Source: Candidatus Magasanikiibacteriota bacterium (GTDB taxonomy: Bacteria; Patescibacteriota; Patescibacteriia; Magasanikbacterales; GWA2-37-8). Taken from it: a DNA stretch of 64,000 bases. Location of the stretch: the NCBI GenBank assembly GCA_041666745.1, contig JBAYGI010000001.1, positions 91,095 to 155,094 on the forward strand, read 5' to 3'. The notes beneath the pieces are model-generated. The model worked only from the letters and a program-made list of their open reading frames with translations, was not told the DNA's origin and did not search any database. The position numbers and the translations under genes were made by a program. This document shows, one piece after another, positions 27,542 through 44,137 of this stretch; within the stretch, counting starts at the first letter, position 1; each line of letters opens with the position of its first letter.

Positions 27542-27638
27542 GAGCTGGGGCGGATTGTCTCTGAGCGGGTTATGAGCCCGAGGCTCATCCTTTCAGCCTC
27601 GCGGCTGAAAAAAGCGAAGAGATAATCCGCCCCAGCTC
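27542..27638 (-). ncRNA. structured repeat element copy X (multi-hairpin, GNRA loops; terminator-like) between the ATPase gene and dnaX
   Basis: 15-bp outer stem gagctggggcggatt/aatccgccccagctc enclosing a conserved core shared with 44039-44137 in the opposite orientation. T-run on the minus strand. Confidence 0.45.
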
Positions 27639-27660
27639 ATGATGTAGTTCAGGCTACATT

Positions 27661-30222
27661 CTACAAGGTCGCCTCACTTAAAGCAATATCCGCTTTCATT
27701 GGAACACCAAGTGCCGACCTCTCCATGATTTCCGCTTCCACAATTTCGCGTGGTCGGCCGTATTTTAGACGAGACAATTCTTTGATCGCTTCGGCTAGTT
27801 CTTTGTTGCCCGCTTTTGGAGGGTAGGTGACCATGCTAAAAGGTTTGGCGGCAGTATTGTTGATAAGTAGTTTTGTGTAGGCAGTATATTGTTCTACATT
27901 GACCAAGTCATAGGCGGAAAAAACAGGGGCAAATTCTTTTTGTAAAATATCCGCGTCTTCCACGCCAATACGAAAAGATACAATCGTACCGGCATTACCA
28001 AGCACCGCATCGCGTACGGTGGACTTGCCTTTGTTGTCCTCCAGCTGTTTCATGTATTGGTGGGCAATAATTAATTCCAAACGATATTTACGAGCCTCAG
28101 ACAAAATTGTGGCGATAGAATCGGTAATAAAGTTTTGGAACTCATCAATGTATAAATAAAAATCATGACGTTGATCTTCGGGCATGTTGGCACGTTCGAG
28201 CGCGGCCATTTGCAGTTTGGAAACGATAATCAAACCCATCAAATTGGAGTTGATTTCACCGGTTAAACCTTTGGCCAAATTTACAATTAAAATTTTCTTT
28301 TTATCCATCACTTCACGGAAACTAAAACCGGAATGACTTTGGCCAATAATATTTCGAACCATGGCATTTTCAGTGAAACGGCCCACCTTGGAAATGAGGT
28401 AACCAAGCATTTCAGATTTGTGAAAGTCGGAAGTCTTGGCCATTTCTTTATCCCAAAAAGCCATTACCACCGGATCTTTTAATTTCTTTTTCCATTTGGC
28501 TACATAAGAATCATCAGTAAACATACGGGGCACTTCGGCGATGGTGCCCGGATTTTCCATATCCGACATCAAAGTCAACATTACGTTACGCATTTGATGC
28601 TCGAACATCGGACCGATCATCGATGGATCAGTTACCATTTTGTAGAAAATGGAAATCATTTCTTGGGTGGCAAAATCTTTTTGTTCTTCGGTTTTGACTT
28701 CGAGCATATTCAAACCAATCGGGCGATCAGTGTCGGATGGATTGAAATAGATAACATCATCGGCGCGTTCTTTTGGAACATGTTGTAAAACATATTCGGC
28801 AAAGTCACCGTGGGGATCAACAATACAAACACCTTCACCATTTTGTACATCTTGAATGGCTAGATTTTGGATGAACACAGATTTACCACTACCGGATTTA
28901 CCGATAGTATAAAGATGGCGACGACGATCATCGCGGGTCATACGCACAATAGTTTCCTCGCCACGATAAACAGCACGTCCCAAAACTATACCTTCAGTCG
29001 GCATGTTGACTGGTGGTGGAGCTTTGCGCGCGCCTAGCCAGTTGATGTGAGGTGTTTCAGTATTTGGAATAGGTAAGTGCCACAAACCGGCCAGCTCTTC
29101 GGTATTGACTACCATGTATCGTTTGGTATCCATGGAGCGGTAAATAGAATCACGGATAAGTTTGTTTTGATTGCGAGGTACGGCCGCCGCGAAGGAATTG
29201 CCGTAACGATAAATATTGTATTGACTAAAAGAATTGACCATGTTTTCCAAATTTCGTTGGGCTACTTCTTTGTTGTCAGCCGAACTCACCATACGCACGG
29301 TCAGTTCCAATCCGCCATGAGAAATTTTTTCTTCCATACTTTTTACCATTTCTTCCTCCATTTGAGTGAGATGGTAATCTTGGGTATGACTTTGTTTGGC
29401 CGGATCTTTGCTTTTTGGAAAGATAGTTTTTTTCCATTTTACTATTGAGCGGAGAAAAGCACTACGACGGGCGACGTATTCAAATTTTTGACCCTCGCGA
29501 ATATCGCGGATCATATGTACACCTTGACGACGCCAATAAGTAGTAGCCGGTCGAACGATAAATTGAATCAACGCACCGTCATTTTCCGACATTTTACTGA
29601 GTGGATTTAAAATCGCCACCAAAGGATCGCTGTCCATTTTTTTGTAAGTTTTCAAAGGAAAAGCTGAACGATTTTTTAAATACAAATAAGCGCCAACAAT
29701 ATTGCTTTTTGGTTTGAAAATATTGTAATCATTTTCAACCAGGATTTCAGCGTGTGGATATTGAGCGTGGATTTGTTGTTCGACAAATTCTTTCCAACGA
29801 TCAGGTGTGGCGATATAAAAAGATATCGTGCCCTCTTTGACTACTATTTCAAAAGCAATATGATCATTGCGTCCGTATAGCCACTTGGAAAAGCCCTTTT
29901 CACCTTTTAAACCGGCAATGGACGAAAACATAGTTTCGGCGGTGGCGATATATTCGCGCGTCTGATTGATGTTTTGTTCTTGGGAGGATTGGTTTTGGGA
30001 GCCCTCATTTTTCTTTTCTTTTGGAACACGAATGAATAAGATAGTTTTGTGAAAAGCTTTGCCTTCGCGTCCTTTGACATGTAAAAATGCGCGCAACAAA
30101 AATAACAATCCGACCAATACTATCCAACCCAAAATAAAAAGAAAAATAGTCAAAAATATCGGTTTGGCAATCGCGTCGGAAATCATTTGTATTAAATAGT
30201 TGGAAAAGCTGGTAGAGTCCAT
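27661..30222 (-). CDS. membrane-anchored FtsK/HerA/VirD4-type P-loop ATPase with a large N-terminal domain of unknown function (853 aa)
   Basis: N-terminal TM helices, a ~400-aa domain paralogous to 15542-16978, then Walker A GKSGSGKS, IVDPHGD motif and Walker B LYIDEFQNF. Confidence 0.7.
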   Translation of the reverse strand: MDSTSFSNYLIQMISDAIAKPIFLTIFLFILGWIVLVGLLFLLRAFLHVKGREGKAFHKTILFIRVPKEKKNEGSQNQSSQEQNINQTREYIATAETMFSSIAGLKGEKGFSKWLYGRNDHIAFEIVVKEGTISFYIATPDRWKEFVEQQIHAQYPHAEILVENDYNIFKPKSNIVGAYLYLKNRSAFPLKTYKKMDSDPLVAILNPLSKMSENDGALIQFIVRPATTYWRRQGVHMIRDIREGQKFEYVARRSAFLRSIVKWKKTIFPKSKDPAKQSHTQDYHLTQMEEEMVKSMEEKISHGGLELTVRMVSSADNKEVAQRNLENMVNSFSQYNIYRYGNSFAAAVPRNQNKLIRDSIYRSMDTKRYMVVNTEELAGLWHLPIPNTETPHINWLGARKAPPPVNMPTEGIVLGRAVYRGEETIVRMTRDDRRRHLYTIGKSGSGKSVFIQNLAIQDVQNGEGVCIVDPHGDFAEYVLQHVPKERADDVIYFNPSDTDRPIGLNMLEVKTEEQKDFATQEMISIFYKMVTDPSMIGPMFEHQMRNVMLTLMSDMENPGTIAEVPRMFTDDSYVAKWKKKLKDPVVMAFWDKEMAKTSDFHKSEMLGYLISKVGRFTENAMVRNIIGQSHSGFSFREVMDKKKILIVNLAKGLTGEINSNLMGLIIVSKLQMAALERANMPEDQRHDFYLYIDEFQNFITDSIATILSEARKYRLELIIAHQYMKQLEDNKGKSTVRDAVLGNAGTIVSFRIGVEDADILQKEFAPVFSAYDLVNVEQYTAYTKLLINNTAAKPFSMVTYPPKAGNKELAEAIKELSRLKYGRPREIVEAEIMERSALGVPMKADIALSEATL

Positions 30223-44022: not shown

Positions 44023-44038
44023 AAATAAAAAGATAAAA

Positions 44039-44137
44039 AATCCAGCCAATAACCACCTTTTCGCTTTTTTTGCCCGCGAGGGCAAAAGGATGAGCCTCGG
44101 CTCATAACCCGCTCAAAGGTAATTATTGGCTGGATTT
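44039..44137 (+). ncRNA. structured repeat element copy Y (terminator-like) after ppsA
   Basis: Outer stem aatccagccaataa/ttattggctggatt plus T-run. The inner core matches the reverse complement of copy X at 27542-27638 with compensatory stem changes. Confidence 0.45.

Follow-up and report, generated by a model that had tools for sequence, protein, structure and literature searches.

An undescribed family of Y-shaped palindromic repeats with a conserved core and locus-specific arms at gene ends in Candidatus Magasanikbacteria

What kind of element occurs twice, on opposite strands, at gene ends in a 64,000-nt stretch of contig JBAYGI010000001.1 (positions 91,095 to 155,094 of the forward strand) from a Candidatus Magasanikiibacteriota bacterium? 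A first-pass annotation of this stretch, hereafter the window, described two ~100-nt structured copies and took them for a functional RNA and not a simple DNA repeat. Here, we identify the two copies as members of an undescribed family of ~100- to 140-bp Y-shaped palindromic repeats in Candidatus Magasanikbacteria (Patescibacteria, also known as the candidate phyla radiation, CPR). We demonstrate that the element is dispensable DNA that is gained, lost, and flipped just after stop codons on the time scale of species divergence, and that it is lineage-specific, is restricted to gene ends, and can stand in the same positions as simple terminators. On balance, although with modest confidence, we read it as a palindromic repeat of the kind represented by miniature inverted-repeat transposable elements (MITEs) and repetitive extragenic palindromic (REP) sequences, in which a conserved core is combined with free arms and the stem acts as an intrinsic, often bidirectional, terminator or as a 3′ hairpin of the mRNA. 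This reading comes close to the “mobile terminator module” that was among the guesses of the first-pass annotation.

The two copies lie where they had been placed and have a common core, of which a 17-nt word (TGAGCGGGTTATGAGCC) has exactly two matches in the window, one on each strand, compared to 0.08 expected. Copy 1 (27540–27640, minus strand; covariance model score 97.7 bits) is located between the stop codon of a gene for an 853-aa TrwB/TraG-like ATPase (27661–30222, minus) and the start of dnaX (25959–27509, minus). On the plus strand, its outer stem, P1, is formed by ATGAGCTGGGGCGGATTGTCTC (27540–27561) and GAGATAATCCGCCCCAGCTCAT (27619–27640), which enclose a conserved three-way-junction core (27562–27618, minus). 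In the plus-strand reading, ATGAGCC (27572–27578) pairs with GGCTCAT (27582–27588) in hairpin P2, and CAGCC (27594–27598) pairs with GGCTG (27603–27607) in hairpin P3, the loop of which (27599–27602) reads TCGC on the plus strand and GCGA on the minus strand. Copy 2 (44035–44140, plus strand; 101.6 bits), which includes an A6 tract (44035–44040) and a T6 tract (44135–44140), is located between the convergent genes ppsA (41053–44022, plus) and a RelE/HigB-like toxin gene (44144–44416, minus). The 5′ arm of its P1 is TCCAGCCAATAACCACCTTT (44041–44060) and the 3′ arm AAAGGTAATTATTGGCTGGA (44116–44134); the conserved core between them (44061–44115, plus) has ATAACCCGCTCA as its 3′ end and contains P3 (TGCCC, 44071–44075; loop GCGA, 44076–44079; GGGCA, 44080–44084) followed by P2 (ATGAGC, 44090–44095; loop CTCG, 44096–44099; GCTCAT, 44100–44105). 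In shape, copy 2 corresponds to a bidirectional intrinsic terminator whose apex is Y-shaped.

Read on the strand of the upstream gene, the two copies follow the same layout, i.e., a 5′ arm, UCGC-U6, P3 with a 5-bp variable stem and a GCGA loop, AAAGG, P2 with AUGAGC(C) and a 3- to 4-nt loop, AUAACCCGCUCA, and the 3′ arm. On this strand, the P3 loop of both copies is of the GNRA type and the P2 loop is YNMG/UNCG-like. The exchange of CAGCC/GGCTG for TGCCC/GGGCA around GCGA on the gene-sense strand, as pointed out in the first pass, is real, and we find an additional compensated segment beside the core, which is TCTCT/AGAGA in one copy and ACCTTT/AAAGGT in the other. The outer stems were described as unrelated in sequence yet paired over 15 bp; both points are correct, but the stems are longer. 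P1 of copy 1 comprises 22 bp plus one position that is A·C on the gene-sense strand or G·U on the other strand, and P1 of copy 2 comprises ~26 bp with the A6/T6 tracts counted in. The predicted folds of both copies, on either strand, are much more stable than expected, with z-scores of −8.3 to −10.3 relative to shuffled sequences.

How far does this family extend? A covariance model (R1) together with an nhmmer profile gave 185 hits, which correspond to 148–167 distinct copies depending on the de-duplication used, all from assemblies of Magasanikbacteria or other Patescibacteria, so that the scan proposed in the first pass did uncover further copies, with covariation in all three helices. Within the window, these searches detected only copies 1 and 2; in several assemblies, 12–16 copies are present within the fetched stretches alone. 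(Loci fetched from related assemblies and compared with the window are labeled L plus a number.) In GTDB contigs, with one genome per species, a 21-base core pattern matched 58 times in 56 loci, and all 58 matches fall in metagenome-assembled genomes (MAGs) of Magasanikbacteria/Patescibacteria, plus two MAGs titled “uncultured Gammaproteobacteria.” Assemblies under the latter title, CAYZHG01 and CAZXEV01 (L006, L007, and others), contain many copies of the element; the title is probably wrong because these MAGs share orthologous loci with Magasanikbacteria MAGs. A metagenome scan in which the P2 and P3 stems were left free identified at least 111 loci. Locus L143 contains two divergent copies in opposite orientation ∼20 nt apart (8676–8762, plus; 8784–8869, minus). 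The element itself had no match in Rfam 15 when the whole window was scanned at the gathering threshold, which returned only transfer-messenger RNA (tmRNA) and two tRNAs, and local Rfam scans of both copies at E-values up to 10 returned only long-hairpin microRNA noise far below threshold. A long-form variant, described below, had no match in Rfam either, the element had no match in viral contigs, phage records, or plasmid records, and no description of it was found in the literature searched.

Across the family, a locus-specific P1 of 16–38 bp closes a conserved core of ∼57–62 nt, in which a three-way junction joins P1 to two short hairpins that covary, P2 and P3, and the unpaired and junction bases are almost invariant. 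Core bases beyond the search pattern are also near-invariant, though P1 has turned over completely. Among 98 distinct sequences, 95.2% of the cells are standard pairs and both sides have changed in 29 of the 34 pairs; the covariation score is 0.585 compared to 0.149 for shuffles, 0 of 500 of which reached 0.585, and slid-register controls scored ≤0.094. P3 varies at three base pairs and the changes are always compensated (CAGCC, UGCCC, CACCC, CGACC, and CAACC are among the variants), and no G·U intermediates were seen in P3 in the seed set. P2 covaries once it is freed from the search pattern (GAGC/GCUC, GCGC/GCGC, GAGGC/GCCUC, GAAAC/GUUUC, and CCCGAC/GUCGGG). The inner ∼10 bp of P1 form loose subfamilies, e.g., ATAATTACTTTT/AAAAGTNNTTAT, and the outer part is unique to each locus. 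P1 also has an asymmetric internal-loop position that is fixed 6–9 bp from the core and is always carried by the same arm with respect to the core. Three or four loci have a long form (L119:∼1075–1235; L142:1250–1409, minus strand; L050:∼190–330; L131:∼60–200) with ∼75 extra nt and two more hairpins between P2 and AUAACCCGC, giving a five-way junction; one of the hairpins has the perfect palindrome AAGTATTAAT-TT-ATTAATACTT.

Such covariation is not proof of an RNA because the helices are DNA palindromes, too. Templated correction from arm to arm or gene conversion between copies could produce compensated changes, and this would explain the compensated P3 differences between orthologs with ∼96% identical flanks.

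Several observations support that the element is dispensable DNA. First, an all-against-all comparison of flanks revealed many orthologous sites without the element. The site filled in L147 has the stop and start codons abutting (TAA-T-ATG) in four other genomes, with no hairpin at the empty site; similarly, the element found in L078, L045, and L080 is missing from the corresponding sites of L028, L048, and L105, and the one in L139 from those of L014 and L119. Copy 1 is itself absent from the dnaX junction in L168, which has a 26-nt spacer (DnaX 81% identical), and in L170, which has a 3-nt spacer (DnaX 78% identical). At the same junction, L174 (3160–3250) has a palindrome that keeps only the core boundaries (TCGCT-A-CGCTCAA), and L172 (3724–4000) has a structured insert of 277 nt that is unrelated to the element. 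The upstream junction of dnaX appears to be a hot spot for insertions of palindromes. Second, the same gene junction can be filled by elements with different P1 stems, as in L147 vs. L003 and in L078/L080 vs. L045, and decayed copies exist (L004, L024:6975–7062, and L174).

Third, the core flips. In 97 of the 129 pairs of filled orthologous sites, the core has the same orientation, and in 32 it is inverted. In L096 and L040, the flanks are ∼96% identical and P1 is the same, and the core together with the asymmetric inner part of P1 is reverse-complemented. Copy 1 in the window is inverted relative to its ortholog L004/L070. This flipping may perhaps simply reflect recombination between the arms. 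It follows that the orientation noted in the first pass, i.e., the same for both copies relative to the upstream gene, applies to these two copies (the 853-aa gene is on the minus strand and ppsA on the plus strand) but is not a rule for the family, because the core flips in 32 of 129 orthologous pairs; copy 2, moreover, lies between convergent genes. Likewise, the family is real, recurrent, and structured and covaries strongly in all three helices, which supports part of the first-pass interpretation, but the contrast drawn between a functional RNA and a DNA repeat fails because copies are absent at orthologous sites, the core is inverted, and 27 copies are antisense; the element is a dispersed, dispensable DNA repeat.

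The genomic context connects the element to gene ends. Among 167 copies, 164 are intergenic, and the median distance past the upstream stop codon is 26 nt. With orientation scored relative to the strand carrying the GNRA loop, 55 copies are sense between co-directional genes (both an A- and a T-tract in 16), 42 are between convergent genes (both tracts in 36), 27 are antisense between co-directional genes (both tracts in 5), and 5, which are dubious, are between divergent genes. Both tracts, therefore, flank 36 of 42 convergent copies vs. 21 of 82 co-directional copies, and this concentration in convergent contexts argues that the flanking tracts track the need to terminate. At least six T in a 7-nt downstream window are found in 39 of the 42 convergent-context copies.

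Moreover, the element and simple terminators take each other's place. At the site after ppsA, L175, L176, and L177 have simple A-tract/hairpin/T-tract terminators in place of copy 2; the flanks in L176 are identical to those of copy 2 (gatAAAAAA … TTTTTTgatttata), and the L176 terminator stem (..CGGCCAA/TTGGCTG..) resembles the outer stem of copy 2, the outer part of which is CAGCCAA. Conversely, a simple bidirectional terminator in the window (16982–17011; CAAAAACCTCC-TTTATAG-GGAGGTTTTTT) lies at a gene end where L027 (JBAYIZ01) has the element at the orthologous site, and L159 and L065 have a simple terminator at the site where L031 has the element. Downstream of the tmRNA gene, the element is present in L095 and the window has a different, 60-nt palindrome. 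The two window copies resemble Rho-independent terminators in their U-tracts: the stem of copy 2 ends in GGCTGGA, is followed by TTTTTT, and is preceded upstream by AAAAAA, and on the gene-sense strand the stem of copy 1 is followed by TCTTTATTTTTT. In general, the likeness to Rho-independent terminators consists of an A-tract, a G+C-containing stem, and a T-tract in copy 2 and in 36 of the 42 convergent copies. The differences are that the loop of such terminators is 3–8 nt long and the apex here is a ∼57-nt three-way junction, that the stem is 16–38 bp, and that the T-tract is often lacking in co-directional contexts. A simple terminator scan of the window lists neither copy 1 nor copy 2.

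We suggest the following model. Once transcribed, P1 would provide the mRNA with a 3′ hairpin. Between convergent genes, the A-/T-tract-flanked element would most likely terminate transcription in both directions, because it takes the place of simple bidirectional Rho-independent terminators in relatives. Between co-directional genes, the element, often without a T-tract, is probably just read through as a stable 3′ or intercistronic hairpin. The core would not be needed for termination. More speculatively, it is probably kept by a factor that recognizes the folded single strand, DNA or RNA, and propagates or maintains the element; alternatively, the copies might homogenize one another by gene conversion.

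Several points weigh against this model. The termination role is deduced from position and sequence only, and ∼40% of the co-directional copies have neither tract. Gain and loss at the dnaX junction are not polarized because the six genomes are approximately equidistant (78–87% nucleotide identity). No P1 is common to two copies in one assembly, with the best paralog pair 84% identical over the element plus 30 nt on each side, so that nothing points to recent copy-and-paste of the kind known from classical MITEs; the model also leaves the source of each new P1 unexplained. No transposase or other partner protein was identified, and no transposase was found next to the copies. In a weak test, tblastn searches of 1.25 Mb with IS608/IS200 TnpA queries gave no match with E < 0.06, and a gene like those for REP-associated tyrosine transposases (RAYTs) was not seen, although it was searched for only indirectly by this tblastn with IS200/IS605-type TnpA. 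Finally, a host RNA function would account equally well for the near-invariance of the unpaired core bases in diverged genomes.

Other ideas on how the element arises or acts did not hold. A fold-back origin, in which a P1 arm is an inverted local flank, was rejected at the sites examined, where neither arm resembles the empty-site sequence; an apparent match of this type at L151/L073 is a downstream promoter. Insertion into the loop of a pre-existing terminator was rejected as a general rule by co-directional empty sites without a hairpin; for copy 2, to judge by the resemblance of its outer stem to the L176 terminator stem, such an insertion is possible. By inspection, the core contains no credible −35/−10 promoter on either strand that would make it an inverton.

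Among known systems, the closest to the element are the Correia- and enterobacterial repetitive intergenic consensus (ERIC)-type MITEs and the REP/REPIN sequences, but their pattern of conservation is the inverse of that of the element. Correia elements/NEMIS in Neisseria and ERIC sequences, also called intergenic repeat units (IRU), in enterobacteria are MITE-like palindromic intergenic repeats that are co-transcribed into mRNAs. Like the element, they are ∼100–150 bp, non-coding, dispersed, often at gene 3′ ends, form long transcript hairpins, and show presence/absence polymorphism between strains; they can affect termination or mRNA stability. By contrast, their terminal inverted repeats are conserved and the copies are near-identical, while here the arms are locus-specific and the center is conserved, and Correia elements have a TA target duplication, while here only a TC…TC is found in ∼18% of copies. 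The element matches MITEs in being small, non-coding, multi-copy, and presence/absence polymorphic at orthologous sites, but its terminal inverted repeats are not conserved, no near-identical copies were found within an assembly, and no transposase was found next to the copies or, with the limited tblastn, in 1.25 Mb.

REP sequences, bacterial interspersed mosaic elements (BIMEs), and REPINs with their RAYTs are likewise short, multi-copy intergenic palindromes at gene ends with compensated pairing, and the single-stranded hairpin is thought to be active. However, REPINs have conserved arms and a foot tetranucleotide with a free spacer, and the element, in which the arms are not conserved, shows the reverse. 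Integron attC sites share with the element the location at the gene 3′ end, the primacy of stem structure over sequence, and asymmetric unpaired positions that mark one strand. They differ in having conserved basal R″/R′ boxes (RYYYAAC/GTTRRRY) and a variable apex, whereas the element has a free base, with no conserved basal motif beyond the minority TC flanks, and a conserved apex; it also lacks cassette arrays and an integrase context, and its neighbors are housekeeping genes in conserved synteny. The inverted terminal repeats (ITRs) of parvoviruses, including adeno-associated virus (AAV), are T- or Y-shaped, exist in flip and flop forms, and, similarly to the element, have a long stem, two hairpins at a three-way junction, and two apex orientations. 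This likeness is architectural only, as the element is chromosomal and internal and has no Rep gene.

Of the alternatives to a palindromic DNA repeat with a terminator stem, the one that survives best, although we consider it doubtful, is that the element is a cis-acting structured RNA of the host, i.e., a 3′-untranslated region module transcribed with the upstream gene, in which P1 is a structural helix free to covary and the Y-shaped core binds a protein or serves as an RNase processing or stabilizing signal. The strong covariation in P1, P2, and P3 and the near-invariance of unpaired core bases where flanking genes are only ∼83–87% identical fit this idea. However, the core is inverted between orthologs, including that of copy 1, the same gene junction lacks a copy in close relatives, and the family of the neighboring gene is not consistent. 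The evidence as to which strand folds conflicts. The GNRA-loop strand, which is gene-sense in the window, is favored by the P3 loop itself (GCGA or GUGA in most copies), by P2 loops of CUCG, UUCG, CUUG, and UGCG, and by the ratio of 55 sense to 27 antisense copies in co-directional contexts, in which, nevertheless, one third of the copies are antisense. The opposite strand is favored by G·U wobbles in P1 (78 vs. 29, concentrated 6–9 bp from the core), by a near-invariant tandem G·A beside the junction, and by a lower folding energy in ∼70–80% of copies; most of the wobble excess on that strand, however, traces to a single internal-loop position, and the wobble counts in P2 and P3 point both ways.

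Less likely still, the element is a single-strand-DNA hairpin, in which an HUH-type or other structure-specific enzyme acts on the folded strand, the apex is the recognition module, and terminator activity is a by-product, by analogy with IS200/IS605 ends, REP/RAYT systems, attC sites, and parvovirus ITRs. The relevant observations concern the flanks. On the GNRA-loop strand, the maximal palindrome is directly bordered by TC on both sides in 26 of 148 copies (∼18%), other dinucleotides reach ≤4, and GA on both sides is found in 0; the flank consensus is AAATT(A/T)TC on the 5′ side and TCTTT(A)TT on the 3′ side. These TC flanks track the orientation of the core and not that of the gene (14 sense, 5 antisense, and 2 convergent), and the inner end of P1 is bounded by the same dinucleotides. 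Copy 1 is of this type, with TC at both borders on the minus strand followed by TCTTTATTTTTT. Near the insertion point, the empty site in L168 contains one TTC, in flanks too diverged to prove a target-site duplication. The TC flanks may reflect duplication of the target, serve as a cleavage motif, or cap the structure through tandem G·A pairs on the other strand.

In a single-strand-DNA hairpin, TC…TC would be the cleavage or target signature. The asymmetric internal-loop position on one arm only, at a fixed 6–9 bp from the core, also fits, the replication strand could account for the 2:1 orientation bias, and the two orientations of the core are reminiscent of flip and flop in parvovirus ITRs. 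Furthermore, the P2 loop (CNNG) and the P3 loop (GNNA) match stable DNA tetraloop motifs. Against it stand that the weak tblastn test revealed no HUH, RAYT, or integrase partner, that there are no near-identical paralogs, that the TC flanks are limited to ∼18% of copies, and that cleavage sites would sit at variable distances from the core because P1 is 16–38 bp long.

That the copies are inert, i.e., leftover or chance hairpins without function at any level, is very unlikely. Individual copies are dispensable at their sites and some have decayed, but the core has stayed near-invariant during complete turnover of P1, the A-/T-tracts correlate with convergent context (36/42 vs. 21/82), and 164 of 167 copies are intergenic. 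Least of all do we expect a self-cleaving ribozyme or a stand-alone small RNA gene built on the three-way junction, which the conserved junction with variable stems, typical of small ribozymes, and the multi-copy distribution would fit, because the hammerhead core motifs CUGAUGA and GAAA are absent, no Rfam model matches at E-values up to 10 (hammerhead, twister, twister-sister, pistol, hatchet, HDV-like, HEARO, RAGATH, and others), a promoter is not consistently placed, and the orientation varies.

The surroundings of the two window copies deserve mention in their own right. Exact protein matches assign the window to a MAG of Candidatus Magasanikbacteria. The 853-aa TrwB/TraG-like coupling-protein ATPase contains DUF8128 and type IV secretion system-type domains. 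Its gene and a 172-aa gene (together 27661–30749), as well as dnaX and a Peptidase_C39_2 gene (together 25123–27509), are kept in synteny in at least five Magasanikbacteria genomes, and because of this conserved synteny the ATPase looks like a core chromosomal protein and not like part of a conjugative element. In one relative, L171, genes for a large serine recombinase (Resolvase/Recombinase/Zn_ribbon_recom) and for a reverse transcriptase (RVT_1) are located at 6501–9605, within a few kb of dnaX. The gene for the 90-aa RelE/HigB/YafQ-like toxin (44144–44416, minus) ends right at copy 2. In relatives, the position after ppsA is occupied by genes for a UvrD helicase or a metallo-beta-lactamase-fold protein or by small open reading frames, so that the region downstream of ppsA is variable. 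The 60-nt palindrome in the window (55087–55146, minus) lies 3′ of the tmRNA gene (55149–55551, minus) and has the ends GTCATTCCGAGCGAAGCCGAGGGATCC … CTCGGTCGGGATGAC; the insert in L172 (∼3840–3950) has similar ends (GTCATTCTGA … CAGGATGAC), and the two maybe represent a second repeat family. Within the fetched loci, a gapped pattern for the post-tmRNA palindrome matched no additional copy.

The non-coding repertoire of the tiny, densely packed CPR/Patescibacteria genomes has hardly been explored. The element adds to it a clean lineage-specific marker repeat with an invariant Y-shaped center and free arms. At the same gene ends, terminators have been swapped between simple hairpins and this structured repeat, and operon boundaries have probably been rewired because the element is inserted between genes that are 3–26 nt apart in relatives. 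For pipelines that discover RNA motifs, the family is a caution, as strong covariation and textbook tetraloops are found here in DNA that flips and is dispensable. If a partner enzyme exists, it would represent a new structure-guided system for recognition of DNA or RNA. Tentatively, and with more doubt than belief, we suggest that the Y-shaped core could be the recognition module of an undescribed mobility or maintenance system that acts on the folded single strand, with specificity in the apex and a free stem. If so, the element would be a chromosomal counterpart of the hairpin substrates of the ITR, attC, and REP type, the orientation-linked TC…TC flanks would be a cleavage or target signature, and the element would seed ready-made bidirectional terminators after genes, even inside operons, in streamlined CPR genomes.

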